From Candidatus Cloacimonadales bacterium (GTDB lineage: Bacteria; Cloacimonadota; Cloacimonadia; Cloacimonadales; JAFGVF01), in NCBI GenBank assembly GCA_963678315.1, contig OY782781.1, positions 1,600,001-1,664,000 on the forward strand: a DNA stretch of 64,000 bases, written 5' to 3'. Below the pieces are notes generated by a model. It was not told the origin of the DNA. It was given only the letters and a program-made list of their open reading frames with translations, and ran no database searches. Positions within the stretch are counted from its first letter, which is position 1; each line of letters opens with the position of its first letter. Positions 1-12,929 of this stretch are shown piece by piece. The translations under genes were made by a program, and so were the position numbers.

Positions 1-227
1 TTAGGATGTTTTCTTCTTAGTTCCTCAATTAAAACTAGTTTGGATATGGTTTTTCCTGTACCAACTTCTCCGCTTAGCATACCCATTTGCATAGAACCAG
101 ATTCTGTAACGTATTTTAAGCGTTCTAGAGCTTCCAAATGGTCAGAACTTTTATAATAGAATTGAGGGTCATTATTGTCTTGGAAGGGGGGTAATTTCAA
201 CCCCCAAAAAGAAAAATAATCTATCAT
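1..227 (-). CDS. ExeA/GspA-family AAA+ ATPase, 5' part (runs off the window)
   Basis: Hand translation from ATG at 227: MIDYFSFWGLKLPPFQDNNDPQFYYKSSDHLEALERLKYVTESGSMQMGMLSGEVGTGKTISKLV. This has the ExeA N-terminal pattern (GL..PF...DP.F.Y.S..H.EAL..L.Y) and Walker A GEVGTGKT. The ATG overlaps the motB stop (TAATG). Confidence 0.85.
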   Translation of the reverse strand, partial: MIDYFSFWGLKLPPFQDNNDPQFYYKSSDHLEALERLKYVTESGSMQMGMLSGEVGTGKTISKLVLIEELRRKHP

Positions 228-919
228 TAGCTATCCTTTTTTTTGCTGAGTTTAATTTCTACTCTTCTATTTTTTTCTCTATTAGCTGGTGAATCGTTAG
301 GGACAAGAGGTTTGAATTCACCATAGCCCATTATTTGTAATTGGTCAGGAGTAAAATAACTATTTCTTAAAAAGAATTTAACTATACTCAAAGCTCTTGC
401 AGTTGATAATTCCCAGTTAGATGGATATTTTGAATTAGCAATTGGGATATTATCTGTGTGCCCTTCAATCCTTATGCTCCAATCTCCACCATCTGAAACA
501 GTTTGTTCTATTGATTGGGCAATTTTTAACAGTGGTTTATGTGAATTCCATCTAAGTTCTGCTTTACCACTTTCAAATAGGATTTCTCCTGGAACAGAAA
601 TAACTCTTTCATTTAAATCAGATATTGCTGAATATTCAGTTGAATCAACAGCTACTTGATTTTCAGCAATGACTTTTTGTTGAGCTTCTGATATTGTTTT
701 CCATCCCAACTCACTATCTCTAACCAAATAGAAGAACACAAAGAAAATCAGTAGCAGAGTCATCAAGTCTGAATAGGGTACTAAGCTTGTATAGAAACCA
801 GAAAAATCATTTTCTGGAGATTCTTCAAACAAGGCACTCATTGATGATATATCTGACCTATCTTCTTTTAAAATCTTCTGTACTTGATTATGAGTTGTAG
901 ACTCTTTATTATTAAGCAT
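227..919 (-). CDS. motB: MotB-family stator B subunit with OmpA-like peptidoglycan-binding domain
   Basis: TM segment VPYSDLMTLLLIFFVFF contains the conserved ion-binding Asp; C-terminal LFESGKA, IEGHTD, SNWELSTARA and NRRVEI motifs. Confidence 0.9.
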   Translation of the reverse strand: MLNNKESTTHNQVQKILKEDRSDISSMSALFEESPENDFSGFYTSLVPYSDLMTLLLIFFVFFYLVRDSELGWKTISEAQQKVIAENQVAVDSTEYSAISDLNERVISVPGEILFESGKAELRWNSHKPLLKIAQSIEQTVSDGGDWSIRIEGHTDNIPIANSKYPSNWELSTARALSIVKFFLRNSYFTPDQLQIMGYGEFKPLVPNDSPANREKNRRVEIKLSKKKDS

Positions 920-1649
920 AAATCTTTTCTAGTCCTGCTTTGATTAGTTCCGAATTCTTCTTGTTTAGCATACCTCTAATGCCTTCGATAATTATCTTTC
1001 TATTAATGAAAGCTTTTTCTGCTTGTGAAGATAACTTTCCTGATAATGGTCTAAAGAACACAACAGACAATACTAAACCATAAAGAGTTGTAACCAATGC
1101 TAAACTCATTGCTTTTGGAACAATTGTAGGATCTTCAAAAGAACTAAGCATAGAAATCAGACCTATAACAGTACCAATCATCCCGAACATTGGTGATATA
1201 TTACTAGCTAAACCAAATACTTTGGAAGCTTTTTTATCTTTATTAAAAAGTGAAAGACTTTCTTTTTCTAACAAAAGGGCAATTTCTGAAGATGGAATAT
1301 TATCAGTTATTAAATTTAAACCAGATCGTAAGAATTTTAATTGTTGCACTTCATCAAAATCAATGATTTCTTTGAATGTTAATGATCTAGAATCTTTGCT
1401 AATGCTAACGATAATATCAACAAGATCATCATGAGATATATTATCTTCTTTATTTATTGTAAATAGCCTTTTGAATGAGAAGAAAAAATCGCTAATTGAG
1501 TAAGTGCTAATTATCGTTACTAAAGTTCCCCCAAGAGTAACAACAACAGCTGTTATATCAACAAAATCCTGCAAGTCTCCCTTGTTATATACTGCAAACA
1601 ATACAATAAAAAGTGATATAAGAATACCTATAAAAGTAGAAATTTTCAT
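912..1649 (-). CDS. motA: MotA/PomA-family stator A subunit
   Basis: 245 aa with an N-terminal TM pair and GGT motif, SPMFGMIGTVIGLISML and ALVTTLYG; overlaps motB by 8 nt. Confidence 0.88.
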   Translation of the reverse strand: MKISTFIGILISLFIVLFAVYNKGDLQDFVDITAVVVTLGGTLVTIISTYSISDFFFSFKRLFTINKEDNISHDDLVDIIVSISKDSRSLTFKEIIDFDEVQQLKFLRSGLNLITDNIPSSEIALLLEKESLSLFNKDKKASKVFGLASNISPMFGMIGTVIGLISMLSSFEDPTIVPKAMSLALVTTLYGLVLSVVFFRPLSGKLSSQAEKAFINRKIIIEGIRGMLNKKNSELIKAGLEKIYA

Positions 1650-1658
1650 TTAATGTCC

Positions 1659-3044
1659 TTAATTTAAATTTAGTATGTATCTAATCTGATTTACTGATTG
1701 ATTGATAATAAGATTCTTTGTCTCTTCATTAAAATCGTCCAGCATTTCTATGTCCTCTTTCATAATCATAATAGCTCTTTCTGAGAGCTGAGAATAGAAC
1801 TTGTTCCTAATGTTATCAGGCACACACTTTAAGAATCTTACCATGTCTAAATGAGTGAACTCACTGTTAATTTGTTCCAGCTGTACATTCTTTAACTTAA
1901 GAATATCATCAATTAAGAATATTTTCTTTGAAAGCTGTTGACTAAAGTCACTATCAAAGAACTGGATTGACTTAAATATTTCGTTAGCTACGTCTGGAGA
2001 AGAATTATTAATAAACTTAGCCATTGTATTAAGTTTATTAATTTTATAGGGATCTTTTTCCATAGCTTCTAAATATTTCTGATACATATTTACAACTAGA
2101 ATTTTCATATCTAATTTAAGCACATTGTCTAAGTTTATGAGGGCTTTTAACACAGCGTTTTTATCACCAGTGTAATGTCTAAAGAAACTATCAAATTTAT
2201 CAGCATCAAGTTGACTTAAAATGATAGCGATCTCATTAGGATTCTCATCTTTTAAAATATTTATGAAGTTATCATTAGATAGCTCATTTAAAAAGGCAAA
2301 ACTAGTTGGACTGTCTTCCTCATCATCTTTTAGAAGTTGAACTTTTACAGGTCTATTGCCCAAGTTATTTGTATGGTTATTATTAGACTCAGAAGAAGAA
2401 CTTTGTGATAATGGAATGGATTGCATTCCGCTAACCTGATCAATATTAGTAACTTTAACTTTTCTCATTGATTTAGCAATGATTCTGAATCCACTTTTTA
2501 GATTATTAACAATTACGAAGAAAGCTAAAGCGAGTAAGGCAATAATTGAAATATTCTTTACGTTAAAGAATGAGTTGCTTTCAGACTTTATATTAAGATC
2601 TTTCTCAATATTAATTACATCACCTTCAAGCTCATTAATATAAGCAATATTTCTTACAATTTCAGAAATTTCTTCAATAACAGAATCATCAGTGTCTTGT
2701 GCAACACGAACTGTTACTCTTTTGCCAGTAACATCTGTTGGAGATAAATCAGTAAGATCAAGAGTTGGTATTTTGTCTTCAGTCTTTGCGACTGGTAGTC
2801 CAGGTAAGCTAGTTTGCTTATCTAGTGTCATTTGATCGCTATTGGGATCATAAAAGTTATAACTTAAATCAATATCAACATAGACTATACAATCTTTTAT
2901 AATTGGTTTCAAAGATGCGTTAATTCTTTCTGATAGTTCGTTTTCTAATCTTAGCTCAGCTAAAGAATTAGAGCCAATTCCAAATAAAAGTCCTGAAAAG
3001 CAAAGAATAAAAATGATAAGTAAAAATCTAATAACAATCTTCAT
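1659..3044 (-). CDS. Putative FliF(RBM3-like)-TM-FliG(M+C) fusion rotor protein
   Basis: Signal/TM, then FliF-like LENELSERINASLKPII..VYVDIDL..LPG..RVTVRV..EISEIV..EGDVINIE, a TM helix and a Ser/Asn linker. Then FliG-M-like FAFLNEL..ILKDENPNEIAIILSQL and FliG-C-like KIFLIDDILKL..FLK..RNKFYSQLSERAIMIMKEDIEML. Confidence 0.75.
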   Translation of the reverse strand: MKIVIRFLLIIFILCFSGLLFGIGSNSLAELRLENELSERINASLKPIIKDCIVYVDIDLSYNFYDPNSDQMTLDKQTSLPGLPVAKTEDKIPTLDLTDLSPTDVTGKRVTVRVAQDTDDSVIEEISEIVRNIAYINELEGDVINIEKDLNIKSESNSFFNVKNISIIALLALAFFVIVNNLKSGFRIIAKSMRKVKVTNIDQVSGMQSIPLSQSSSSESNNNHTNNLGNRPVKVQLLKDDEEDSPTSFAFLNELSNDNFINILKDENPNEIAIILSQLDADKFDSFFRHYTGDKNAVLKALINLDNVLKLDMKILVVNMYQKYLEAMEKDPYKINKLNTMAKFINNSSPDVANEIFKSIQFFDSDFSQQLSKKIFLIDDILKLKNVQLEQINSEFTHLDMVRFLKCVPDNIRNKFYSQLSERAIMIMKEDIEMLDDFNEETKNLIINQSVNQIRYILNLN

Positions 3045-3114
3045 TACTACCTCTTATAGTTAATTGATATCAAGTGTAGTTTTTAGGCAAGAAAAAAATC
3101 AGTTTTTTTTTTGT

Positions 3115-3142
3115 TTGACTAAAATACCCAAAGTGCAAATAT
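3115..3142 (+). promoter_or_regulatory. Putative sigma70-type promoter for the surface-protein operon (divergent intergenic region)
   Basis: TTGACT-N16-AAATAT upstream of GGAG RBS and ATG 3169. Confidence 0.4.
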
Positions 3143-3168
3143 TAATTATCAAACTACGGAGATATCAG

Positions 3169-6100
3169 ATGAAATGTATTTTTAGTCGAACTACGATAAC
3201 GTTACTATTGATAATATTATTTAACTATTCAAATTTACTCAGTGAAAAAAAATATGATTTTAGTGAATGGAATGGTAATGTAGATATCATTGGAGAGAGT
3301 TCTTTTGATCAGTTTGGAGAAGATCTTGTTCATGGTGATGTGAATGGTGATGGTATAAACGATATTATATGTTCAAGTCCTTCAGCTGATCCTTCAGGTA
3401 GAAACTCTGCAGGTATTGTTTATATTTTTTATGGCGAGACAATTCTAGAACAAGAAACAACTATATCACTTGAAAGCAATAATGCCGATGTTACTATATA
3501 TGGGGCTGTAGCAGGACAAAAATGTGGTTCAAGCTTGGCTTGCGGCACAGTTAATAGTGACCTTTTTGATGATGTAGTAATTGGAGCTCCTTTTGCTAGT
3601 ACTAATGATCTTGAACAAAATGGTCTAGTATACATTATTAATGGTTCGAATAATTTACCAACAATTATAGATTTAGCTTCTGCTACTGGAATTGATAAAA
3701 TTAATGGTAGTACTAGTAATGATTTTTTAGGAAGTGATATCACTGTTGCGAATTTGAATAGCGATAATTTAGATGAAGTTATTATTAGTGCACCCAATGC
3801 AGATTCAGATAATACACAAAACTGTGGTAAGGTATATATCTTATGGTCTAATGAAAGCTACTCACAGAATCTTGATTTAGCTTCTGCTAATAATGTTACA
3901 TATTTTGTTGGTAACCATATCAATGAAAACTTAGGTTATAAGATTGCTTGCGGTAATATTAATAACGACTCTTTCTGTGATTTGTTCATTGGCGCTCCGG
4001 GTTTTGATGATGATAGTCTGTTAAATAATGGAAGGTTATTCCTTATAAAAGGTCGAGGTTTCTTTCCTTTTGGGCAAGTTGATATTACAAATGAAACTTA
4101 TGTAAATGCAACAATTGAAGGAACTAATCAAGCATCTGTAATTGGAAAAGCTTTTACAGTAGATGACTTCAATAATGATGGGAATGGAGATTTACTTCTC
4201 ACAGATCAAAGTAGTCAATTAGATTCAAACTTAATATACCTAATTTTAGGTAATAATAGCCTAACAGGTACCATTCTAGCAAACAGTGAAAACTCTAATT
4301 CATTAATTTCAGGAGAAGGTTTAGACAATACATTTGGTCAGTATCTTTACTCTGGAGATGTAAATAATGATTCTATATATGATATGATTATTTCCTCTCC
4401 TGAAGCAGAAACTACTAATGGTAATTCCTCTGGAATAGTCCATGTTATTTATGGTAATAGCCTTATTAATACTGCTTATGATGTTAATCTAGGTGATAGT
4501 GATGAAGTTTATCTTGGAAGCACAACACAGTCATTAACAGGTACTTCTATTTCTCTATGTGATTTTAATAATGATTCTAAAAATGATATTTGGATTGGTT
4601 CTCCAGGTAGTGGAAATAACAATGGTGAGATTAATAGTGTTTATGGTGGTATCCCATGGCTATATAATAGAAATCCTAATGAAGAAGCTACAGATGTAGA
4701 TATTGATAGTCCTGTATCTTTCTCATTGGCAGATGATAATCAGATTAATATTTCTTCTATCTCAGTTGTTATAGCTGGTACAGAATACAACTCTAATAGC
4801 AATAACTTCTCTTATAGTGGTTCGGAAGAAAATTACAGAATTACTGTAGCTCCTGAAGATTTTTACGGATATAACCAGATAATTGACGTATCAGTCAATG
4901 CTGAAGATGATGATGGCTGGCAGATACCTGAATCAAATTATAGATTTTTTACTAGAGAAGATACTGATCCTCCATTTACTGATTTATGGATTCCAGCTCC
5001 AGATGCAGTTGGCGTTGCTGTAGATACCAACATTGAATTCCATATTTATGATTTAGGGGATGGGGTCGACTTATCATCAATCACTGTTAATATTCAAGGT
5101 GAAAACTATTATTCAGGTCATCCTAATTTCTCAGCTCTGGGAGAGGCAAATGATTACACAATAGTAATTAATCCCCCTCAAAACTTTAGTTTTGGGGAAT
5201 TAGTTAATGTTACTATTGATGCTACAGATTTAGCTGAAGTCCCTAATGCCATGACTTCTTTCGAATACTCATTTACTTGCGGACAAGATAATTCTGCTCC
5301 TTCAATAATCTTAATAGAACCAGCTTATAATGAAGAAGTATCTAGAGTTAATCCTGTAATAATAGAGGTTAGAGATGATGAAACTGAGTTAAATCTTTCT
5401 TCAGCTGAATTAAAGCTTGATGATGTAAGTATATTAGCTTCATCACAGATAACCAATATAACAAATGGATATAGATTTTATTATTCAGCACTTGATAACG
5501 GTATACATTCATTCGGAAATCATGAAATTGAATTTTATATTGAAGATAGCTCTTCCAATGCAGTTGATACTCTATCAGTTTTTTCTGTGATACCAGATAA
5601 TGAAGCTCCTTTTACTCAGAATCACTATCCTGATAAGTTTTCTACCGAGAACGCAACAAATACCAGTTTTATGGTGGAAATATTTGATTTTCTTAGTGGA
5701 GTAGATATTAATACTGTCTCAATTAGATTGAATAGCCAAGAGATTATGAGTTCTCCATTCACAACTATTACAGATGTTGCTGATGGTTATAGAATTCTTT
5801 ACAGTCCTGATGAAAGGTTTCAAGGAGAAGTTTCAGTAGAAATTGATGCAGGTGATCTTGATATACCAGCCAACAACATGCCAACAGAAGTCTATACTTT
5901 TGAATGTACAAGTGATACTGAAGCCCCTTACATAGAAAATGTTGATCCTGAAGTCGGCGAGATTAACGTTAGTCCTGATACTAATGTACAATTTAGAATA
6001 AAAGATGATAAAACTGGGGTTGATATTTCAACCTTATCAGTTAAAGTTAATAATATTGTTGTAACTGATAATGTAACGACAGCTCTAGTTACATCTGGTT

Positions 6101-7833
6101 TTGATGTGCTTTATATTCCATCTGAAATATTTGATTTCAATGAATGGGTTGAAGTAGAAATTGCATGTTATGACAAAGCTCTTGTTCCTAATTTGTTTAC
6201 AACTGATTATAGCTTTAGAATAACTCCAGATCTTATTCCACCTGAACTAGTAAATCTATCCCCCGAAGCCAATGAAACAGGAGTTCCTATCTCTGAAAAT
6301 ATATATTTTGAAATTACTGATAATGGACTTGGTGTTGATATCAACAGCTTATCAATGAGAGTAAATGGGGTTCAAGTTAATCCAGATTATGAAGAAATTA
6401 ATGATACAAATAATTATGCTGTAACCTATGAACACCAAGATTTTGATTATTCAGAAGAAGTGACTGTTGTAGTATCTGTGTCAGATCTTGCAGCGTCTCC
6501 GAATAGTTTAATTAATTATAACTATATGTTCCAAACAGTAGATGATGATAATGTTGAACCATTTTTTACTGCCTTTAATCCAACACCTGATGCTATAGAG
6601 GTGCCTGTTGAGACTTCAATCTCTATGGAAATCCTAGATGCTGATTCAGGCATAGATGAAACTTCAATTATATTTAAAATTAATAATGAAACAATTGAAA
6701 GTTACCAGCTAACACCGATTGATAGTGATGAGGGAACAGGTTTTCAACTTCTTTATGAACCTAATGAAGAGTTTAATTACAATGAGACTGTTCATGTTCA
6801 GATTTATGCAATGGATTCTTCTAGTAATAACAATAGTAATAGTATGAATTATTCTTTTACTACTTTAGTTGATGACGATCCTCCATATCTTAGCTTTTCA
6901 TATCCTGAATCTGGAGGTAATGGTTATGCTAATTCTTTAGTGTATCTTAATTTTAATGATGACTTATCTGGGGTAGATAAGACTAGTTTTAATTTGAAAA
7001 TTAATGATTCTTTTGTGACAACTTATACAGATTCTTTAGATGGAAATGCTTTTGAGGTTTGGTACGAAACAGAAGATAACTACACTTCAGATATTGTTGA
7101 AGTAGAATATTACATATCTGACAAGGTGGGTAATACTTTAAACGAATCCTTTGAATTTAACATTATAGAGGATATATATCCTCCATATTTTGTGCAAATT
7201 GGATCCTTTGCAGATAATCAAGATGAAATAGTAAATAAACTAAAAATAGCTATTCTTGATAAGGGGGTTGGCATTAATAAAGAGAGTATTCAGTTCGAAG
7301 TTAATAATCAAAGTGTAGAAAACTATTCGCTAGATGAACATATTTATGATTCAAACCCTGACTCATTAGGTTATGTGCTGACTTATAATGTTAATGAAAA
7401 TAATTATGATGGTCAAAAACTTAAAGTTAATATTTATGCAGAAGATGAAAACAATCCTATTCCTCTTTCTGGTGAAGCTCAACTAAGTTTCTATATATGG
7501 CGTGAGCTAAATTCAGATAAAGTAGAGATTGTTCCAAATATTTTGAGCCTAAATAATGATGGATATAACGATGAATGCAGAATAATCATTCCATCCAATA
7601 AAAATGCTGTGTGTAAAATATTCACAATGGAAGGTAAAGAGATCAAAGACTTGGATATTATGCCTTATAGCTATGAAGATAGTCCTGATTTATCAAAAGG
7701 TGTGCAAGATTACCAAGTTGCCATCTGGGATGGTAGAAACAAAGACAATAAGATTGTCAATGCCGGAATTTACTTTTGCCAAGTCGAAGTAAATGGTAAG
7801 AAACACTTAAACACAATAACAATAGCAAAGTAG
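3169..7833 (+). CDS. Large secreted surface protein: 7 FG-GAP (integrin-alpha propeller) repeats, ~9 Ig-like repeats, FlgD-Ig/T9SS type-B-like C-terminal domain
   Basis: Likely start ATG 3169 (GGAG RBS, signal peptide). Seven G..l...D.N.D..D....P repeats and nine ~105-aa repeats mostly starting D..[AP]P. Tail VPNILSLNNDGYNDE..IFTMEGKEIK..WDGRNKDNKIVNAGIYF. Confidence 0.85.
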   Translation: MKCIFSRTTITLLLIILFNYSNLLSEKKYDFSEWNGNVDIIGESSFDQFGEDLVHGDVNGDGINDIICSSPSADPSGRNSAGIVYIFYGETILEQETTISLESNNADVTIYGAVAGQKCGSSLACGTVNSDLFDDVVIGAPFASTNDLEQNGLVYIINGSNNLPTIIDLASATGIDKINGSTSNDFLGSDITVANLNSDNLDEVIISAPNADSDNTQNCGKVYILWSNESYSQNLDLASANNVTYFVGNHINENLGYKIACGNINNDSFCDLFIGAPGFDDDSLLNNGRLFLIKGRGFFPFGQVDITNETYVNATIEGTNQASVIGKAFTVDDFNNDGNGDLLLTDQSSQLDSNLIYLILGNNSLTGTILANSENSNSLISGEGLDNTFGQYLYSGDVNNDSIYDMIISSPEAETTNGNSSGIVHVIYGNSLINTAYDVNLGDSDEVYLGSTTQSLTGTSISLCDFNNDSKNDIWIGSPGSGNNNGEINSVYGGIPWLYNRNPNEEATDVDIDSPVSFSLADDNQINISSISVVIAGTEYNSNSNNFSYSGSEENYRITVAPEDFYGYNQIIDVSVNAEDDDGWQIPESNYRFFTREDTDPPFTDLWIPAPDAVGVAVDTNIEFHIYDLGDGVDLSSITVNIQGENYYSGHPNFSALGEANDYTIVINPPQNFSFGELVNVTIDATDLAEVPNAMTSFEYSFTCGQDNSAPSIILIEPAYNEEVSRVNPVIIEVRDDETELNLSSAELKLDDVSILASSQITNITNGYRFYYSALDNGIHSFGNHEIEFYIEDSSSNAVDTLSVFSVIPDNEAPFTQNHYPDKFSTENATNTSFMVEIFDFLSGVDINTVSIRLNSQEIMSSPFTTITDVADGYRILYSPDERFQGEVSVEIDAGDLDIPANNMPTEVYTFECTSDTEAPYIENVDPEVGEINVSPDTNVQFRIKDDKTGVDISTLSVKVNNIVVTDNVTTALVTSGFDVLYIPSEIFDFNEWVEVEIACYDKALVPNLFTTDYSFRITPDLIPPELVNLSPEANETGVPISENIYFEITDNGLGVDINSLSMRVNGVQVNPDYEEINDTNNYAVTYEHQDFDYSEEVTVVVSVSDLAASPNSLINYNYMFQTVDDDNVEPFFTAFNPTPDAIEVPVETSISMEILDADSGIDETSIIFKINNETIESYQLTPIDSDEGTGFQLLYEPNEEFNYNETVHVQIYAMDSSSNNNSNSMNYSFTTLVDDDPPYLSFSYPESGGNGYANSLVYLNFNDDLSGVDKTSFNLKINDSFVTTYTDSLDGNAFEVWYETEDNYTSDIVEVEYYISDKVGNTLNESFEFNIIEDIYPPYFVQIGSFADNQDEIVNKLKIAILDKGVGINKESIQFEVNNQSVENYSLDEHIYDSNPDSLGYVLTYNVNENNYDGQKLKVNIYAEDENNPIPLSGEAQLSFYIWRELNSDKVEIVPNILSLNNDGYNDECRIIIPSNKNAVCKIFTMEGKEIKDLDIMPYSYEDSPDLSKGVQDYQVAIWDGRNKDNKIVNAGIYFCQVEVNGKKHLNTITIAK

Positions 7834-7839
7834 GTTAAC

Positions 7840-9315
7840 ATGAAAAATACAAATATAAAAATTACAGTCTTTCTTGTTTTATTACTTTGCACATTAGATT
7901 TATATTCTTTCAATTTCTTCAAGGGTGGACTTAGGAATTATAGTTTAGCTGGAACAGGTGTAGCCTCAACTAATGATGTATCTGCTAGTGGCTACAATCC
8001 TTCTTTGCTTAATTTGAATAGAGATTTTTCCATACTAACAGACTCAAGAGTCTATTTCTATGATCTTGAGAATGATGATTTAAGCTTTAATTATTTTGCT
8101 TTAGGAGTACCTCTCGGACGTTATGGCTCTTTAGCTTTATCAGGGGATATTTTCAATGCTAATCTTTATGATGAAAATAGATATGGATTACATTGGGGAT
8201 ACTCATTAACAGATGATTTTGGTATAGGTACCAGCATCAATTATTACTCTATATCTTATGGAGGAAATGAGTATACCCAGAATGACCCATTCTTTGTTGA
8301 TAATAATACTGATAAGGCAGCTCTTGATCTAGATTTTGGATTATATTATAATCTTAGTCAGCAATGGAGACTAGGACTCTCATCGAAAAATATACTTCAA
8401 TCTGATCTAGCGATTGATAGTAGTAATGAAGAACAGTTAAATAGAGAAATCTTAATTGGTAATAATTATCAATATAGAAAATTTAATTTTATGCTTGATC
8501 TTGGTCTTATTCAGAATGCTGTAACAGAAGAAAACGAACTAAATTATGCTTTAGCTAGTGAATATAAATTATACGATAATCTTGCTATTAGAACTGGTAT
8601 TAACAATAATGATCTAACTTTTGGGTTTGGCTTTGAGATTATCGACAAAGAATATGTTTCTTCTTACAGATCTTCATATAACTCAAAAAAAATGATTGAG
8701 ACTAAAAGTGTTGTTTTCTCTGTAGATTATGCTTTCTCTTATCCTTTGTTGAGTGATCTTGCTATTCCATACGGAAATCACTTTGTAGGTTTAAGCTTTA
8801 AATTTGGTAACTCACAATCTAGTGAAGATGAACTTAAAAAACATGTTTCTCCTGTAGTGGAAGAGGCAATCGTTGAGATTCCTGTCAAAGCATCTTTAGA
8901 TAATTCTAAACCGCATGTCTTAGTTGATACAGTTTATGTAGATAAGATTATTAGAGATACTATTGTTGTAGTTGATACAATTGAGGTTATTACAGGAGTA
9001 CCTGAGAGTGAGTATCAGAAGAAAATTCAGGAGCTTAATGCTGCATACACTAAAATCAAAACTTATAAAACTAATAATCAAGCTCTGATACACATAACTA
9101 ATGCAACGAAATACTATTATAGCAGTGATTTTGAGAAGGCTATTGATGAGTGTAATAAAGCTATAAGGCTTGCTCCAGATATGGCACTTGCTTATATAAA
9201 ACTCGGTTCGATATATTATAGGCAAGGAAAAGCAGACTTAGCAATGAAGAATTGGAAAATTGCTAAAAGACTAGACCCTAAAAACCCTGAACTTGAAGGT
9301 CTTTTTGATGATTAA
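7840..9315 (+). CDS. PorV/PorP-SprF-like outer-membrane beta-barrel with C-terminal TPRs
   Basis: Signal peptide; GLRNYSLAGTGVASTNDVSASGYNPSLL resembles the PorV/FadL-type plug; amphipathic beta strands. C-terminal TPR pair DFEKAIDECNKAIRLAPDMALAYIKLGSIYY..WKIAKRLDPKN. Confidence 0.7.
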   Translation: MKNTNIKITVFLVLLLCTLDLYSFNFFKGGLRNYSLAGTGVASTNDVSASGYNPSLLNLNRDFSILTDSRVYFYDLENDDLSFNYFALGVPLGRYGSLALSGDIFNANLYDENRYGLHWGYSLTDDFGIGTSINYYSISYGGNEYTQNDPFFVDNNTDKAALDLDFGLYYNLSQQWRLGLSSKNILQSDLAIDSSNEEQLNREILIGNNYQYRKFNFMLDLGLIQNAVTEENELNYALASEYKLYDNLAIRTGINNNDLTFGFGFEIIDKEYVSSYRSSYNSKKMIETKSVVFSVDYAFSYPLLSDLAIPYGNHFVGLSFKFGNSQSSEDELKKHVSPVVEEAIVEIPVKASLDNSKPHVLVDTVYVDKIIRDTIVVVDTIEVITGVPESEYQKKIQELNAAYTKIKTYKTNNQALIHITNATKYYYSSDFEKAIDECNKAIRLAPDMALAYIKLGSIYYRQGKADLAMKNWKIAKRLDPKNPELEGLFDD

Positions 9316-9451: not shown

Positions 9452-9721
9452 TTAGTATCTGTTGCTTCTGAACTTTTGTTCACGAGGACGAGCTTCATTA
9501 ACTTTTAAGTTACGTCCACCAATTTCATTATCGTTTAGGTTTTTGATAGCTTCTTCGCCATCTTCTTTGTTAGCCATTTCTACGAAACCAAAACCTTTAG
9601 GTCTTCCAGTTTCTCTGTCTTCAATAATCTTGGCAGAAATAACTTCGCCAAACTCAGCAAATAAAGCTCTTAATTCATCTTCTGTCATTTTGTATGACAT
9701 GTTTCCAACGTAAATATTCAT
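9452..9721 (-). CDS. RRM-domain RNA-binding protein
   Basis: RNP2 IYVGNM, RNP1 KGFGFVEM, LKVNEARPR. Confidence 0.95.
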   Translation of the reverse strand: MNIYVGNMSYKMTEDELRALFAEFGEVISAKIIEDRETGRPKGFGFVEMANKEDGEEAIKNLNDNEIGGRNLKVNEARPREQKFRSNRY

Positions 9722-9811: not shown

Positions 9812-10186
9812 TTAAATATTGGTGTTTAACGAAATATTAAGAGCTTCAATTAAATCTACTTTTGAGATTGGTTTCGTTAAGTAATGATCACAACCTGCAT
9901 CGTATGCTGCTCTTTTTTCTTCAGGGTAAGCATATGCTGTTAAGGCTATTATAGGTTTTTCGAAGCCAAAATCTCTTATCTTTCTTGTAGCACTTAGACC
10001 ATCCATTAAAGGCATCTTGATATCCATTAGTACAAGATCAATATTATTTCCTTCTTTAGTTATTTTTTTTACAGCAGCTTCCCCATTAACCTCATTAATT
10101 AAATTAAAGTCCTCTTTTAAATATGCTTTAACTAATATATAGTTATCTATTTGATCTTCTACTACTAATATTGTCTTTTTATGCAT
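9812..10186 (-). CDS. Single-domain response regulator (REC)
   Basis: Likely start 10186 (AAGGAG RBS); ILVVED, LVLMDIKMPLMDG, ALTA, KP. Confidence 0.92.
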   Translation of the reverse strand: MHKKTILVVEDQIDNYILVKAYLKEDFNLINEVNGEAAVKKITKEGNNIDLVLMDIKMPLMDGLSATRKIRDFGFEKPIIALTAYAYPEEKRAAYDAGCDHYLTKPISKVDLIEALNISLNTNI

Positions 10187-12929
10187 AAATATTTCTCCTT
10201 GTTCTGTGTTTGTTTGGAATTTTAAAGTAGAAAGTACTTCCAACATTTATTTCTGATTCTAACCAAATCTTACCGTTTAATTTTTCTAAGAGAGCTTTTG
10301 AAATAGAAAGCCCTAGTCCTGTTCCTTGCTTTATTGAGTCTATTTGATAGAACTTTTCAAAAATTTTATTGAAATGTTCTTTCTTAATTCCACAACCAGT
10401 ATCTCTTACAAAGAATGTTGTATGAGAAGTGTTTTTATCTATTATACCAAATGAAATTTCTCCGCACTCTGTGAATTTAAAGGCATTATTCAAAATGTTA
10501 ACAAAAACTTGTACTAATCTATATTTATCAGTTTGAATATTAAAGTTCTCAGGTAGATATTCTAACTTTATTCTTAAATTATCTCTTATCCTAGTTTTAT
10601 ATGTAGAATGAAGTTCTTCAAGAACTTGGCTGATGTCAAACTCTTGTAGATCTACTTCAATTATATCAGCTTCAATCCTAGAATAATCAATAATGTCACT
10701 AATCAACTTAAGCAGTATTTCATTATTTCTTTTAATTATTTCCGAGTAGGTTTTTAATTCTTCAGCAGAAAGAGAAGCATCAAACAAATCAGCAAAACCA
10801 ACAATAGCATTAAGTGGAGTTCTAATCTCATGACTCATATTTGTTAGAAAAGCTGTTTTAAGCCTATCACTTTGCTCAGCTCTATCTTTTGCAATTTCGA
10901 GTTCAGTCATATTTTTATTTAGTGTCTTATTTAATTGAATATATTCTTCATTCTTTTTTTCAAGTTCTTTCTTACTATTAACTATCCCTGTTACATCGCT
11001 AATAATACATATAACACCAATTATATTTCCATCAGAATCAATGTTGGGACTAAAAATCTCTTGAGAAATTCCCCATTGTTTCTTCTTTGGATTATAGAAT
11101 TCAACATTTTCATAAGTAATTCGATTACCTTTTAATGCCTCTTCTAGACCATGTCTAATCTTGTCATAAGTAGATTGGTCAAAGATCTCAGCAGTTGTCT
11201 TGCCTAGAACTTCAGATTCAGATAAACCTGTAAAAGTTTCCATAAACTTGTTCCATAGTAGGTATCTAAGTTTGGTATCATAAACAATAATCCCCTGAGA
11301 TGCGTTTGTTAGAATACTCTTGTTCAATTCAAGTGCATTTTTCATCTTATTGAGATAAAGTTTCCTCTCTTCTTCTGCTTTTATTCTCTTGGATATATCG
11401 TGAATGATAGAATATAGGTATTCTTTACTTCTAATGTAAATCTTTCCACTATATACTTCTACATCTCTAATCTCACCATTAGATTTTTTATGTTTGAAAT
11501 GAAAAATGTTTTTATCATTATTTAAGGCTTTATTGACATCATTTCTCACATTTTTTAAAGCATTTGTGTTCAAATCACAAATCTTAAGCTTTAGCATTTC
11601 ATCATGGGAGTATTGGTAATAATTACAGGCTGCATCATTAGCATCAATAATATCTGTTGTTATTGGGTCAATTATCAACATGATTGAGTATGATTTTTGG
11701 AACATACTTTGATAACGAATTTTACTTTCGCGTAACTCTTTTTCCATCATAAACTCGGTTGTAATATCCTTAAAAGTACAATAAGTTTGTCGCATAATTC
11801 CATCAGCACGATAACCAATACAACCTTCGAAGGAAACGTAAATTTTTGATTTGTCTTTTCTTACCATTCTAAATCTAACATCATGAATATAACCCTGTGC
11901 CTTAAAGACAGGGAAGTTCTTTTTGAAATGTGCAACATAGTCATTATCTAAGAAGTCTGAAAAATTTCTGCCTATAACTTCAGACTTTGTATATCCTAGT
12001 GTAATTAACCACATAGGGTTTACATCAATAATATTACCATCGGGGTTCAATGATTGATAGGCTAAAGGAGCATTCTCATACATTGCTCGATACTTATTTA
12101 CTTTTTCTGAAAGAAGATCTAGTTTTGTATTATATAATGTAGTGTTGTTTGCAAAAATCAAGATATGATTATAGGGTGTTAGTAAACCTGTTGTTTTAAA
12201 GTAAATTGTTCTTTTTTTAGAAGTTATGAGTTTGATATCTTTTTGAAATTTTCTTTTCATAGTAACCTGATGAATGAAGTCTAAAAATTCTGTATTCTCT
12301 TCTCGAACAAAGTTAACAATATGTTTTCCAATAATAACTTCTTTCTTTGATTGAAGAGCAATTACAGCCTGCCTATTCAGATCTACAACATTTAAATCGC
12401 TATCTAATTCAAAAAATAATTCATAATTGTTCATTAAAAAAGTATACTGTGAGCCAATAACAGAATATCCTAGTAAAGAAGCCAAAGTATCATTAATCAA
12501 TCCTAAAGTAGAAATGAAATGGCTTATGGATTCTAATACAATATCACTATTGAAATATAAGCAACCAATTGCTATATTATTAAAAGAAATAGGATAAGAA
12601 TAATTAAAATCTTCCATTAAAATTTTACTTATATCTTTTAATTCCAAGTTGTTCTTTACAATTAGGATATTTTTTCTATTATCAATAACTTCAAAGAATT
12701 CATATTTATCAATTGAATCAAAGTTTTTTCTCATTAACTCATTTGAAAATATCAACTTTTTTTGGTCTGCGAGAATGAACTCAGCATTATTAATAAAACT
12801 CAAACTTATGAATTTACTATGAATATTATCTATAAAAGATTTTTCAGGCTTTTTGGTAATAAGCAATTTATTGATATATAACGATAGGTTAAATAATTCA
12901 TCCTTTATTTCAATATTTTTATTTTTCAA
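10179..12929 (-). CDS. Cytoplasmic multi-PAS sensor histidine kinase
   Basis: Several PAS repeats; H-box FLTNMSHEIRTPLN, N-box NILNNAFKFT, G1 DTGCGI, G2 GTGLGLSI; TTG start with GGAG RBS. Confidence 0.92.
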   Translation of the reverse strand: MKNKNIEIKDELFNLSLYINKLLITKKPEKSFIDNIHSKFISLSFINNAEFILADQKKLIFSNELMRKNFDSIDKYEFFEVIDNRKNILIVKNNLELKDISKILMEDFNYSYPISFNNIAIGCLYFNSDIVLESISHFISTLGLINDTLASLLGYSVIGSQYTFLMNNYELFFELDSDLNVVDLNRQAVIALQSKKEVIIGKHIVNFVREENTEFLDFIHQVTMKRKFQKDIKLITSKKRTIYFKTTGLLTPYNHILIFANNTTLYNTKLDLLSEKVNKYRAMYENAPLAYQSLNPDGNIIDVNPMWLITLGYTKSEVIGRNFSDFLDNDYVAHFKKNFPVFKAQGYIHDVRFRMVRKDKSKIYVSFEGCIGYRADGIMRQTYCTFKDITTEFMMEKELRESKIRYQSMFQKSYSIMLIIDPITTDIIDANDAACNYYQYSHDEMLKLKICDLNTNALKNVRNDVNKALNNDKNIFHFKHKKSNGEIRDVEVYSGKIYIRSKEYLYSIIHDISKRIKAEEERKLYLNKMKNALELNKSILTNASQGIIVYDTKLRYLLWNKFMETFTGLSESEVLGKTTAEIFDQSTYDKIRHGLEEALKGNRITYENVEFYNPKKKQWGISQEIFSPNIDSDGNIIGVICIISDVTGIVNSKKELEKKNEEYIQLNKTLNKNMTELEIAKDRAEQSDRLKTAFLTNMSHEIRTPLNAIVGFADLFDASLSAEELKTYSEIIKRNNEILLKLISDIIDYSRIEADIIEVDLQEFDISQVLEELHSTYKTRIRDNLRIKLEYLPENFNIQTDKYRLVQVFVNILNNAFKFTECGEISFGIIDKNTSHTTFFVRDTGCGIKKEHFNKIFEKFYQIDSIKQGTGLGLSISKALLEKLNGKIWLESEINVGSTFYFKIPNKHRTRRNIYA

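Follow-up and report, generated by a model that had tools for sequence, protein, structure and literature searches.

A gene at the start of the window, the 64,000 nt of Candidatus Cloacimonadales DNA that were analysed here, encodes an inner-membrane protein in which parts of a flagellar rotor are joined in one chain. We consider it probable, taking both statements together, that this gene is a natural single-chain fusion of the S-ring domain of FliF (RBM3) with the middle and C-terminal domains of FliG, and that its product works as a stator-driven, non-switching ring in the inner membrane which passes force to an outer-membrane barrel and its partner adhesin. The fusion has conserved torque residues, is encoded beside a MotA/MotB pair with conserved channel residues, occurs in a genome without flagellar genes and keeps its neighbourhood in related genomes. 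The module has the look of an envelope machine, so far undescribed, that is made of parts of the flagellar motor.

Layout of the fusion gene

The fusion gene, its segments and the adjacent genes are listed in Table 1. The first hydropathy peak of the protein covers aa 3-21 (helix 2-20 in the AlphaFold2 (AF2) model), and the second transmembrane segment has its hydropathy maximum at aa 161-179 (AF2 helix 162-196). Residues 183-248 are disordered in the model (pLDDT <50); the linker occupies the position that the FliF C-tail and FliG-N hold in the flagellar proteins. The AF2 models are of moderate quality, with a pLDDT of 61 for the whole fusion (12 sequences) and 68 for the N-terminal domain (8 sequences). 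A first-pass annotation of this DNA had proposed a periplasmic domain followed by one transmembrane helix, a linker, FliG-M and FliG-C, a layout that was borne out by domain matches, hydropathy and AF2. In a word-indexed protein search 13 relatives were retrieved, 12 of them full-length with 43-48% identity and one a fragment of 288 aa; about 30 more full-length representative clusters were also found.

Table 1. Features of the fusion locus and their positions in the window
Feature	Position	Strand	Basis or remark
ExeA-like AAA ATPase, 5' part, 279 aa in all, runs off the window	3..227	(-)	AAA_22, TIGR03015
MotB-type stator B subunit, 230 aa; plug, TM Asp51, OmpA-like peptidoglycan anchor	227..919	(-)	OmpA, MotB_plug
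MotA/PomA-type stator A subunit, 245 aa	912..1649	(-)	MotA_ExbB, MotP/PomA matches
FliF(RBM3)-TM-FliG(M,C) fusion gene	1659..3044	(-)	461 aa; ATG start
Hydrophobic N-terminus, aa 1-22, either signal peptide or first TM	2979..3044	(-)	hydropathy, AF2
RBM3-like ring-building domain, periplasmic, aa 24-165 (~140 aa)	2550..2975	(-)	fold and profile-profile comparison
Transmembrane helix, ~aa 161-190	2475..2564	(-)	hydropathy, AF2
Low-complexity cytoplasmic linker, ~aa 197-248	2301..2456	(-)	pLDDT; no FliG_N
FliG-M-like ARM domain, ~aa 249-340, EHPQ degenerate (ENPN, aa 267-270)	2025..2300	(-)	alignment with T. maritima FliG-M
FliG-C-like domain, ~aa 341-461, with IFLI at the MFxF position, aa 375-378	1662..2024	(-)	FliG_C, alignment
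Torque helix QLSERAIMIMKEDIE, aa 419-433	1746..1790	(-)	alignment with T. maritima FliG, conservation
Giant surface protein with FG-GAP/Ig repeats, listed ORF 1589 aa	3064..7833	(+)	FG-GAP, Big_5, CHU_C
PorV/PorQ/PorP-like outer-membrane beta-barrel with C-terminal periplasmic linker/TPR	7840..9315	(+)	NF033709, TPR

The periplasmic domain resembles FliF RBM3

In the AF2 model the N-terminal domain shows the order alpha-beta-beta...beta-alpha-beta, and no other structure matched this predicted fold as well as FliF RBM3. VIA-align superimposed it on 6scn_A (FliF 232-438) with Z 13.8 and an rmsd of 3.6 over 103 aligned residues; three FliF entries scored 13.8, 13.5 and 11.7, followed by SpoIIIAG (9.0) and PrgK (8.7). 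In Foldseek all of ranks 1-17 were FliF (3e-5 to 6e-4), and the next unrelated fold appeared at 1.8e-2. Comparison of the family N-domain with FliF RBM3 by hhalign yielded a probability of 91.9% (E 7e-7), the sister subfamily reached 97.1% against the same target, and the two subfamilies matched each other at 99.8%. At the level of single profiles, Pfam YscJ_FliF_C matched neither the fusion nor the 27 closest representatives scanned, and the N-domain profile retrieved no FliF from the PDB sequences (best hit 0.14, chance level). The homology to FliF therefore rests on the fold, the profile-profile comparison and intermediates; 12 of the 62 relatives scanned match YscJ_FliF_C at E<=0.01, three of them above the cut-off. 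As a lead only, the ESM Atlas clusters nearest to the N-domain bear YscJ_FliF_C (0.88 and 0.86).

The loop SLPGLPV[AG]K[ST] at aa 79-88 is invariant across the fusion family and stands as a short replacement for the FliF beta-collar. As the collar insertion comprises ~40 aa in the fusion and ~110 aa in FliF, the geometry of the ring may differ from that of FliF. Hhalign paired ELEGDVINIE of the fusion with ERGDMISIE of real FliF. The identification of the periplasmic part as FliF RBM3 in the first-pass annotation is thus upheld by VIA-align, Foldseek and hhalign, its RGD-like EGDVINI end by the hhalign pairing, and its short LPG insertion is present as the invariant loop. RBM1-RBM2 of FliF house the export gate. 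The annotation had also held that RBM1/2 and the export gate are lacking, in agreement with the lack of a Pfam YscJ_FliF match (RBM1/2) on the fusion and of FlhA in the genome.

The cytoplasmic half retains the torque helix of FliG

FliG_C (Pfam) was detected on the fusion at 2.6e-10 (41 bits, exceeding the cut-off of 23.3); FliG_M reached 4.3e-4 (20.9 bits, under its cut-off of 25) and MgtE_N 1.2e-4, likewise under the cut-off. The NCBIfam model TIGR00207 (fliG) aligned aa 244-435 with model positions 107-298 of 338 at 1.2e-17, with a score of 64.3 bits that does not reach the equivalog cut-off of 226.7. FliG_N binds the C-terminal tail of FliF. It gave no match on the fusion in the Pfam scan, and since the TIGR00207 alignment starts only at model position 107, FliG-N is missing, as had been claimed. 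All 10 phmmer matches among PDB sequences were FliG, with T. maritima FliG-MC at the top (3.5e-13). Relationship to MgtE or to generic ARM repeats had been named as the competing assignment for this half; FliG fits better according to FliG_C, TIGR00207, the fold search and phmmer against the PDB.

In the alignment with T. maritima FliG, ENPN lies opposite EHPQ and IFLI opposite MFVF, confirming the earlier readings at these two motifs, and phmmer placed LSERAIMIMKEDIE of the fusion opposite MSKRAAALLKDELE. By alignment, R423, E430 and D431 correspond to the E. coli FliG residues which we take to be R281, D288 and D289. The numbering of torque residues in E. coli FliG is given in PMC12505986. 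The first-pass annotation had aligned the torque helix with enteric FliG and seen the Arg and the acidic pair kept; this holds against T. maritima FliG, through which alone the enteric string was compared. Conservation was counted in 40 members of the fusion family, 17 of the sister subfamily and 43 true FliG. Arg is found at R423 in 39/40, 16/17 and 42/43 of these, an acidic residue at E430 in 39/40, 17/17 and 43/43, and an acidic residue at D431 in 40/40, 16/17 and 43/43. The charges of the torque helix are thus kept as well as in true FliG. Two of the five charged torque residues of FliG are poorly kept, as K406 (equivalent of K264) is Lys in 18/40 family members and the equivalent of R297 is basic in 0/40.

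EHPQ of FliG_M is the FliM-binding motif. At its positions the family has E in 33/40, P in 22/40 and Q in 0/40 members, compared with Q in 43/43 true FliG. This family-wide degeneration and a genome without FliM/N support the former statement that the protein lacks switch interfaces. With the FliM interface decayed another partner could bind FliG-M, and in one distant locus (L044) a CheY-like receiver and histidine kinases are encoded directly upstream of the fusion. Both would suit a stator-binding regulator or sensor, i.e. a membrane-anchored FliG decoy that docks MotAB and senses or dissipates ion-motive force, or signals the state of the envelope, with no mechanical output. We regard such a role as very unlikely: a decoy leaves the conserved ring-building domain with its invariant loop unexplained, and equally the persistent outer-membrane partners.

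The adjacent stator is of the flagellar type

The start of motA lies 9 nt past the stop of the fusion gene, motB overlaps motA by 8 nt, and the next overlap, between motB and the gene of the ExeA-like ATPase, is 1 nt. Judged from this spacing, fusion, MotA and MotB are predicted to be translationally coupled. MotA matches MotA_ExbB (Pfam, 1.9e-21) and, in NCBIfam, MotP (2e-40) and PomA (7e-39), with TolQ at only 3e-3. Against PDB sequences it retrieved PomA (4.3e-32), with R88 opposite R88 of PomA; a basic residue occupies position 88 in 20 of 23 sequences, and P153 is present in 23 of 23. The position of PomA E96 is Ile in the MotA of the window, and acidic residues are located at 97, 99 and 100. 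MotB matches OmpA (3.7e-17) and MotB_plug (5e-6) in Pfam, along with MotD, MotB and MotS in NCBIfam, and its channel Asp is kept in 20/21. The pair is of the flagellar and not of the Tol/Exb type. The stator proteins do not reach the NCBIfam equivalog cut-offs (e.g. MotP 138.5 vs 394), and since all these scores stay under the cut-off MotAB is classed as a divergent member of the flagellar stators.

A related possibility is a Tol/Ton-like proton-driven force transducer without a closed rotor: the MotA pentamer would pull on a small number of fusion subunits, and these would tug, by way of the periplasmic domain, at a partner in the outer membrane or the peptidoglycan. The short collar insertion of the fusion is compatible with it, and in the sister subfamily motB is directly followed by a gene for a YbgF/CpoB-like TPR protein (TIGR02795 2.6e-15), an arrangement that resembles the order of the tol-pal operon. 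Furthermore, MotAB, TolQR and ExbBD are treated as one motor family (10.1101/2024.03.12.584617). However, the periplasmic domain is closest to the ring-building RBM3 of FliF in both Foldseek and VIA-align, and the RBM3 domains of FliF and SpoIIIAG build closed rings according to PDB entry titles and to Bergeron 2016 (PMC4768692). The cytoplasmic part is FliG, known as the stator-facing ring, and a transducer of this kind is in our opinion unlikely. We know of no use of FliG other than as a ring that faces stators.

The module is conserved, and its host has no flagellum

The host genome consists of one contig and is 97.9% complete. Its single FliG_C match is the fusion gene. YscJ_FliF gave nothing in this genome at E<=1, and YscJ_FliF_C, FHIPEP, Flagellin_N and FliMN_C were likewise not detected in it; the YscJ_FliF profile was found in flagellated control genomes, and the controls for the other four were positive in flagellated genomes as well. 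The bacterium is thus without a flagellum, as no FliF, FlhA, flagellin or FliM/N is encoded in its complete genome.

The fusion is present in ~49 of 232 Cloacimonadota genomes (counted from a table), and proteins of the same architecture carry names from KSB1, Omnitrophota and Electryonea. In 14 hand-picked distant loci MotA adjoins the fusion throughout (14/14); MotB was detected in 12 of them, and a 13th contains a short MotB_plug ORF. Fusion, MotA and MotB therefore stay together across Cloacimonadota. A metagenome scan with the N-domain motif returned only 10 loci, and no locus among them had a context clearly different from those found before.

Ordinary FliG exists in some Cloacimonadota families, and the three such genomes tested (3/3) also have real FliF, which makes a flagellate ancestor plausible and could suggest that the fusion no longer has a function and is decaying, as what is left of a flagellum since lost. 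Retention of some rotor protein by 11% of non-motile species is stated in PMC12199754. Nevertheless, reading frames are intact in the ~49 genomes at identities that go down to 23-30%, the torque and channel residues are as conserved as those of functioning motors, and the genes of the fusion and MotAB are tightly coupled. In two genomes (G118 and G119) the fusion even coexists with complete FliF and ordinary FliG, and its architecture recurs under the names of the three other groups. A decaying leftover is therefore extremely improbable and close to refuted.

A barrel and a giant surface protein are recurrent neighbours

Divergent to the fusion gene in the window lie the genes of a giant protein and of a barrel protein. 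The likely true start of the giant protein is the Met at 3169, ahead of a signal peptide. It matches FG-GAP (4e-30) and Big_5, and its last 130 aa match CHU_C, the type IX secretion signal of T9SS type B cargo, at 7.8e-8 (32.8 bits, exceeding the cut-off of 27). Eight of 10 homologues of the giant protein carry CHU_C at E<=0.04, and 3/10 exceed the cut-off. The barrel protein consists of a barrel (~aa 25-320) and a linker with TPR (~aa 325-491, TPR matches in Pfam), in which Cys438 is invariant. The barrel of the window matched NF033709 (PorV_fam) at 1.8e-11, in an alignment that covers positions 14-324 of the 326 in the profile and scores 44 bits where the cut-off is 90; all five barrel copies scanned, from the window and from distant loci, matched this model. 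The homologue in one distant locus (L042) reached 73.5 bits with NF033709 and, with PF11751 (PorP_SprF), 22.3 bits, which equals the Pfam cut-off.

Giant protein and barrel-TPR protein adjoin the fusion in 7/7 close loci, in divergent order, and in 8/14 distant loci, where they lie upstream on the same strand; in one metagenome locus they follow downstream of MotB. The pair hence occurs with the fusion in three gene orders, and beside the fusion the barrel is always paired with the giant protein. The pair is missing beside the fusion in the remaining 6/14 distant loci, three of which (four fusion copies) have a YbgF-like TPR protein after MotB instead. Further CTD-bearing proteins were seen in the fetched loci. 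Because CTD-bearing proteins appear common in these genomes, some of the adjacency of fusion and giant protein could be due to chance. A complex prediction for the RBM3-like domain and the linker-TPR part of the barrel protein, run on 15-row alignments and without controls, did not reach the mark of 0.32 (scores 0.15 and 0.14) and counts neither for nor against a contact. A scan of positions 1-3400 for sigma-70 promoters and terminators gave 23 promoter-like sites, with 16.9 ± 3.7 expected, and is not informative.

Downstream of motB the ExeA-like gene (TIGR03015 6e-40, under the cut-off) opens an ExeA-Wzc-LCP-Wza block for polysaccharide export, which is linked to the fusion only in this family and is kept in 7/7 close relatives and not in most distant loci. 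Here and in these seven relatives the genes run, overlapping or abutting, from fusion, MotA and MotB through the ExeA-like ATPase, Wzc, LCP and Wza to a 922-aa protein. The motor might accordingly power or organise the downstream Wzc-Wza-LCP pathway, as AglRQS of Myxococcus powers Nfs/Glt. LCP-Wza is encoded just upstream of the fusion in a further locus (L047), and Wzc-LCP-Wza upstream in another (L065), ~2.7 kb from the fusion start. Yet 13 of the 14 distant loci are without an ExeA, Wzc, LCP or Wza homologue beside the fusion, and barrel-TPR and giant protein recur far more often, so that a role in polysaccharide export is distinctly unlikely.

The SprA translocon was detected in the host genome with 517 bits and in 212/232 Cloacimonadota genomes. 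GldL was found over the cut-off in 0/232 Cloacimonadota genomes and GldM not over the cut-off in the host genome; in the 12/12 genomes of the host family no GldN was found and no GldK over the cut-off, each of these searches being run without a control genome bearing the respective gene. The idea that fusion and MotAB are the missing T9SS motor of the phylum was rejected as a general explanation, since in one family SprA is present in 93/98 genomes and the fusion in 0/98.

Proposed working of the module

In the reading that we consider probable, the periplasmic RBM3-like domains would oligomerise into an inner-membrane ring, as those of FliF do, with every subunit carrying a cytoplasmic FliG-MC unit on a flexible linker. 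The presumably co-transcribed, peptidoglycan-anchored MotA/MotB would conduct ions and push on the torque helix (R423, E430, D431). Because there is no FliM/FliN switch, the ring would be turned or loaded in one direction only. The membrane helices would then transmit the force to the ring in the periplasm with its invariant loop. The likeliest load is the neighbouring PorV/PorQ-like barrel, which the ring could contact through the periplasmic TPR tail and which probably holds the adjacent giant adhesin through its CHU_C signal. As physiological output, the motor would move, tension or help to mount a surface adhesin, comparable to the SprF-SprB drive in Bacteroidota gliding. In that system SprF is described as a barrel whose periplasmic tail is coupled to a motor-driven track (PMC12635249).

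A bolder version, possible but doubtful at present, is that the module is a further ion-driven rotary machine of the envelope, in which the MotAB-turned ring acts through the PorV/SprF-like barrel and its periplasmic TPR tail to carry a giant adhesin, secreted by the type IX route, along or around the surface of the cell. If this were true, a gliding or adhesin-conveying motor would have been found in candidate phyla in which no recognisable GldLM was detected, and a living example of the use of a rotor-stator pair without a flagellum would bear on the origin of the flagellar motor. To our knowledge, the flagellar rotor-stator pair is known nowhere but inside flagella. If a FliF-FliG ring does stand alone with a MotAB of its own, the torque core can work without export gate, rod, switch and filament, in a module that is retained across candidate phyla and linked to partners in the outer membrane. 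Structural and biophysical studies would gain a minimal rotor encoded by a single gene, and the finding would point to a new mechanism of surface motility or adhesin handling in uncultured anaerobes, which are common in digesters and sediments. The question whether a 'half motor' is useful, raised in PMC12199754, would become testable. Three proton-driven rotary motors are named in the review PMC9127263: ATP synthase, the flagellar motor and the T9SS.

Comparison with known systems

No published description of the fusion-MotAB module was found in the literature searched, in which only laboratory fusions and the Chlamydiaceae case came up; the string 'Cloacimon' does not occur in six supplement files of PMC12199754. 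With the flagellar motor's core the module shares the RBM3 fold, FliG-M/-C with equivalents of R281, D288 and D289, and a flagellar-type MotA/MotB pair that has the plug, the channel Asp and the OmpA anchor. It differs in that one polypeptide stands here for two there, and in that the fusion is without RBM1/2, the long beta-collar and the joint of FliG-N and FliF C-tail, has a degenerate EHPQ motif and no equivalent of R297. FliM/FliN, export gate, rod, hook and filament are absent from the host genome, and the neighbours are an outer-membrane barrel and an adhesin, not flagellar genes.

That a covalent link of FliF and FliG works is known from laboratory constructs. FliF-FliG deletion-fusions of Salmonella assemble and rotate with a directional bias (PMC4768692, citing Francis 1992 and Thomas 2001), and a FliFG fusion of Vibrio forms S-rings whose structures were solved (PDB 8z4d and 8z4g; PMC11481574); both entries were among the matches of our structure models. 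These constructs keep full-length FliF (and in Vibrio most of FliG) inside a complete flagellum, whereas the protein described here is natural, stripped to RBM3 and FliG-MC, and stand-alone.

Among published cases the nearest is found in Chlamydiaceae, whose natural FliF-FliG fusion is smaller and comprises ~330 aa with RBM2 and an unassigned RBM (Bergeron 2016, PMC4768692). Both fusions occur naturally in non-flagellated hosts and have two hydrophobic segments around a short periplasmic RBM region and a FliG-like cytoplasmic end. As described in PMC4768692, the chlamydial protein is without a SpoIIIAG-like RBM3 and matches FliG-M only; the flagellar genes of Chlamydia are given there as FliF, FliL and FlhA only, and the fusion is tied to the injectisome. 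By this description it is set apart from the fusion reported here, which has RBM3, FliG-M, a FliG-C that includes the torque helix, and a MotAB dedicated to it.

SpoIIIAG and SctJ/PrgK show the same alpha-beta-beta-alpha-beta RBM fold, SpoIIIAG also with an insertion between strands, but neither is joined to FliG, and SpoIIIAG and PrgK match less well than FliF (Z 9.0 and 8.7 vs 13.8; Foldseek 7e-2 and 2e-2 vs 3e-5). The gliding and T9SS machinery of Bacteroidota (GldLM, GldK/N track, SprF-SprB) likewise has an ion-driven inner-membrane motor of the MotAB superfamily, together with a PorP/PorV-type barrel with a periplasmic C-terminal tail and a giant CHU_C/type B adhesin encoded just upstream (PMC12635249, PMC9143113), to which the PorV/PorQ-like barrel and the giant protein of the module would correspond. 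In contrast to that machinery, the module described here has true MotAB with a FliG-bearing rotor in place of GldLM, and the barrel has a TPR tail with one invariant Cys in place of the twin-Cys tail.

Domain architecture of the fusion protein

The open reading frame in which the first-pass annotation had recognized a single-chain FliF-FliG protein is real; its layout is listed in the coordinate table below. With Pfam, FliG_C matched at 2.6e-10 (41 bits, cut-off 23.3), and FliG_M (4.3e-4) and MgtE_N (1.2e-4) stayed below their respective cut-offs. The NCBIfam fliG model TIGR00207 aligned to aa 244-435 at 1.2e-17, with a score far under the equivalog cut-off. Since this alignment is confined to model positions 107-298 of 338, FliG-N is absent from the fusion, as the first-pass annotation had suggested. 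In a phmmer search against all PDB sequences all ten matches were FliG, the best being FliG-MC of T. maritima (3.5e-13). The proposed motifs were seen in the alignment to FliG, with ENPN at EHPQ and IFLI at MFVF, as was the torque helix, with LSERAIMIMKEDIE opposite MSKRAAALLKDELE. The AF2 models of the fusion, which have shallow alignments underneath, contain only helices in the C-terminal half. Foldseek with the whole model ranked FliG-MC first (4.2e-7), ahead of designed ARM repeats, which did no better than 5e-2, and of MgtE (6.9e-2), so that FliG was the better match than either MgtE or generic ARM repeats. By sequence and predicted structure, the C-terminal half is assigned to FliG-M and FliG-C.

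The link of the periplasmic domain to FliF is invisible to plain sequence search: Pfam gave no match on this domain, and an HMM built from it retrieved no FliF from the PDB sequences. AF2 of the domain alone (alignment A2, 8 sequences, pLDDT 68) predicted an alpha-beta-beta...beta-alpha-beta order, in which a low-confidence loop separates two long strands. When this model was compared with the PDB by Foldseek, FliF S-ring/RBM3 entries filled ranks 1-17 (3.3e-5 to 6.0e-4) and a FliF-YlxF integrative model rank 18, followed by OhrB (1.8e-2), PrgK (2.1e-2) and SpoIIIAG (6.9e-2). VIA-align, a method independent of Foldseek, was run against 48,161 representative chains and likewise placed FliF first (6scn_A, Z 13.8, rmsd 3.6, 103 residues aligned, FliF 232-438; 8z5v, Z 13.5; 8z4d, Z 11.7), with SpoIIIAG at Z 9.0, PrgK at Z 8.7 and a background of about 8. 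The match to FliF RBM3 proposed earlier was thus recovered by both methods.

Profile-profile comparison of the N-domain of the family (39 sequences) with RBM3 from three proteins clearly matched by YscJ_FliF_C gave a probability of 91.9% (E 7e-7, 49 columns) and set ELEGDVINIE on ERGDMISIE of FliF. A sister subfamily of the fusion reached 97.1% against FliF RBM3 and 99.8% against the family. Among 62 relatives scanned with Pfam, YscJ_FliF_C was found at E<=0.01 in 12, in three of these above the cut-off. The nearest ESM Atlas clusters to aa 24-165 bear YscJ_FliF_C (scores 0.88 and 0.86), which is taken as a lead only. The inter-strand loop SLPGLPV[AG]K[ST] is invariant in the family and lies at the position of the long beta-collar insertion of FliF. 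Taken on sequence profiles and models, the periplasmic domain is FliF RBM3-like.

Coordinates of the features described (G000, genome of the window; L010 and L044, fetched loci)
Feature	Position	Strand	Description
Fusion gene	window 1659..3044	-	461 aa
Fusion N-terminus	aa 3-21		hydrophobic peak (hydropathy)
Fusion periplasmic domain			~140 aa, between the two hydrophobic segments
Fusion second hydrophobic helix	aa 161-179; aa 162-196		hydrophobic peak; AF2 helix
Fusion linker	aa 183-248		pLDDT < 50 (AF2); disorder predicted
Giant-protein gene	window 3064..7833	+	surface protein
Start region of giant gene	window 3064-3168	+	annotated TTG start probably too far upstream; Met and typical signal peptide at 3169
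Barrel-TPR gene	window 7840..9315	+	491 aa; invariant Cys at aa 438 (alignment A4, 15 sequences)
89-aa ORF	window 9452-9721	-	resembles, by eye, a glycine/arginine-tailed RRM-type RNA-binding protein
144-aa and 916-aa ORFs	window 9812-12929	-	adjoin the 89-aa ORF; by eye like a response receiver and a PAS histidine kinase
922-aa protein gene	L010:7987-10755	-	genome side upstream of the window; ends the operon after Wza
Signalling genes	L044 4060-9034	same as fusion	directly upstream of fusion: FIST protein, two PAS histidine kinases, two single-domain receivers
SprA gene	G000:C1:135254-139513

A stator without a flagellum

The genome around the window is one contig of 2.99 Mb, 97.9% complete, and the single FliG_C match in it is the fusion gene. 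YscJ_FliF, YscJ_FliF_C, FHIPEP, Flagellin_N and FliMN_C had no match in the complete genome, and each search was positive in flagellated control genomes. motA (245 aa) begins 9 bases past the fusion stop, and motB (230 aa) follows with an 8-nt overlap. By NCBIfam, MotA is nearest to flagellar MotP (2e-40) and PomA (7e-39), TolQ reaching only 3e-3. The nearest PDB entry is Vibrio PomA (4.3e-32), with R88 aligned to PomA R88; in MotB, plug, TM aspartate and OmpA-like anchor are all present. Across 23 MotA and 21 MotB from fusion loci, position 88 was basic in 20/23, P153 was present in 23/23 and the MotB Asp in 20/21.

Torque and switch interfaces

Residue conservation was compared between three sets drawn from the exhaustive profile search: the family, the sister subfamily and ordinary FliG (325-350 aa). 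The equivalents R281, K264 and R297 are in E. coli FliG numbering, partly after PMC12505986.

Conservation of residues at the torque and switch interfaces
Residue	Counted as	Family (40)	Sister subfamily (17)	Ordinary FliG (43)
R423 (R281 equivalent)	Arg	39/40	16/17	42/43
E430	acidic	39/40	17/17	43/43
D431	acidic	40/40	16/17	43/43
K406 (K264 equivalent)	Lys	18/40	12/17	40/43
R297 equivalent	basic	0/40	0/17	39/43
Q of EHPQ	present	0/40		43/43

Judged from the residues, the fusion keeps the torque interface and does not keep the switch interface. That the fusion is a dead remnant is barely credible, as these conservation data contradict it; that it serves as a stator-docking sensor is considered very improbable.

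Distribution of the fusion

A word-indexed protein search returned 13 relatives, 12 of them full-length (43-48% identity) and one a 288-aa fragment. Exhaustive profile searching recovered 2,534 proteins when E<=1e-3 was allowed; at E<=1e-30 there were 37, of which about 30 are full-length (444-491 aa) and share the layout of the fusion. A second tier comprised 480-700-aa proteins with its topology. Cluster-member names include Cloacimonadota, candidate division KSB1, Candidatus Electryonea, Omnitrophota and Desulfomonilia. Within Cloacimonadota, 70/232 genomes had a profile match. About 49 carry the fusion (37 with one unbroken full-length match, the remainder split or cut at contig ends), and the other 21 have ordinary FliG (~350 aa) only; in one large family 0/98 genomes have the fusion. 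Two genomes, G118 and G119, encode the fusion plus a 535-aa FliF plus ordinary FliG; the fusion is therefore a separate system and no substitute for lost genes.

Two proteins from the profile search, P0087 (774 aa) and P0131 (787 aa), are natural complete FliF (YscJ_FliF and YscJ_FliF_C) joined directly to FliG-M/FliG-C, with EHPQ intact. FliG-N is missing from its normal position, weak FliG_N matches lying over the M/C region only, and one of the two carries the source name FliF. By sequence they resemble functional flagellar rotors in which the FliF-FliG joint is covalent.

Gene neighbourhood

In 7/7 close relatives the block is syntenic, with barrel-TPR and giant protein on one strand and fusion, MotA, MotB, ExeA-like ATPase, Wzc, LCP, Wza and a 922-aa protein on the other; BLAST missed Wzc in two of them and the 922-aa protein in one. 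The latter, kept in 6/7 at 41-43% identity and matching neither Pfam nor NCBIfam, may belong to the polysaccharide path, as a component in the outer membrane. Fourteen distant loci were picked among Cloacimonadota profile matches for diversity and contig extent. MotA adjoins the fusion in all 14, and MotB was found in 12, plus a short MotB_plug ORF in L041. Eight have giant protein, barrel-TPR, fusion, MotA and MotB on one strand with few-base gaps. The order is fusion, MotA, MotB, giant protein, barrel-TPR in metagenome locus L065, and in five further short metagenome contigs the barrel lies immediately upstream of the fusion. Through three gene orders across close, distant and metagenome loci, the five genes stay together. 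The polysaccharide genes do not stay with the fusion and recur only in L047 and L065; that the motor drives the downstream Wzc-Wza export path is rated distinctly unlikely.

In the sister subfamily (fusions of 475-514 aa), four copies in three loci, L050 (two in tandem), L051 and L052, have a YbgF/CpoB-like TPR protein after MotB (TIGR02795, 2.6e-15), without barrel and giant protein. In genome G144 this module is duplicated in tandem. Among the signalling genes of L044, the second histidine kinase is a hybrid with a receiver domain and the last receiver (122 aa) is CheY-like, a gene content suggesting that the motor may be under signal control in this lineage.

Putative outer-membrane partners and type IX secretion

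The barrel-TPR protein matched the PorV/PorQ family at 1.8e-11 across nearly the entire profile. All five window and distant-locus barrels scanned did so (best 2.1e-20), all under the NCBI cut-off, and one homologue attained the Pfam PorP_SprF cut-off. The last ~165 residues of the 491-aa protein comprise a linker plus a TPR domain, the latter containing the invariant Cys. This residue is of interest because cysteines in the SprF tail tie SprF to the gliding track in Flavobacterium (PMC12635249). The family alignment contains no conserved Cys in the fusion periplasmic domain. Complex prediction for this domain with the barrel linker-TPR gave no support and carries no weight either way.

FG-GAP and Ig repeats occur in the giant protein, together with a CHU_C type IX signal (32.8 bits, cut-off 27) that was found at E<=0.04 in 8/10 homologues. 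A start at 3169 would leave ~124 bp of divergent intergenic DNA up to the fusion gene. The SprA translocon is present in the genome of the window and in 212/232 Cloacimonadota genomes. In searches run without a positive control, GldL was not found above cut-off in the 232 genomes, GldM had no match in the genome of the window, and within its family GldN had no match and GldK none above cut-off. Since nearly all genomes have SprA but far fewer have the fusion, the latter was ruled out as the general T9SS motor of the phylum. It accompanies a particular barrel-adhesin pair.

Proposed mechanism and comparison with known systems

What is established is the anatomy of the fusion, the conservation of its stator-facing charges and of the channel residues, the absence of genes for a flagellum or its switch, and a neighbourhood that persists. 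We propose that RBM3-like domains would build an inner-membrane ring, whose FliG-C torque helices would be pushed by peptidoglycan-fixed MotA5B2 units, so that the ring would rotate in one direction only. Contact with the TPR tail of the barrel, which would carry the adhesin, would be made from the periplasmic side of the ring, probably by the invariant loop. This stator-driven, one-way ring acting via the barrel on an adhesin is favoured with modest confidence; a stand-alone stator-driven role of the fusion is more likely than this whole, and the barrel-adhesin as the specific load is less likely. A non-rotary force transducer of the Tol/Ton-like kind is regarded as rather unlikely. SprF offers a precedent: this PorP-like barrel holds the SprB adhesin, and the tail it extends into the periplasm is bonded to a track driven by a motor (PMC12635249).

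A full-text literature search returned no account in which an RBM3::FliG-MC fusion comes with a dedicated MotAB and partners of T9SS type. Laboratory FliF-FliG fusions function (PMC4768692). The nearest published case, as described by Bergeron (2016, PMC4768692), is a natural FliF-FliG fusion of ~330 aa in the non-flagellate Chlamydiaceae, with RBM2 and an unassigned RBM and a reported match to FliG-M only.
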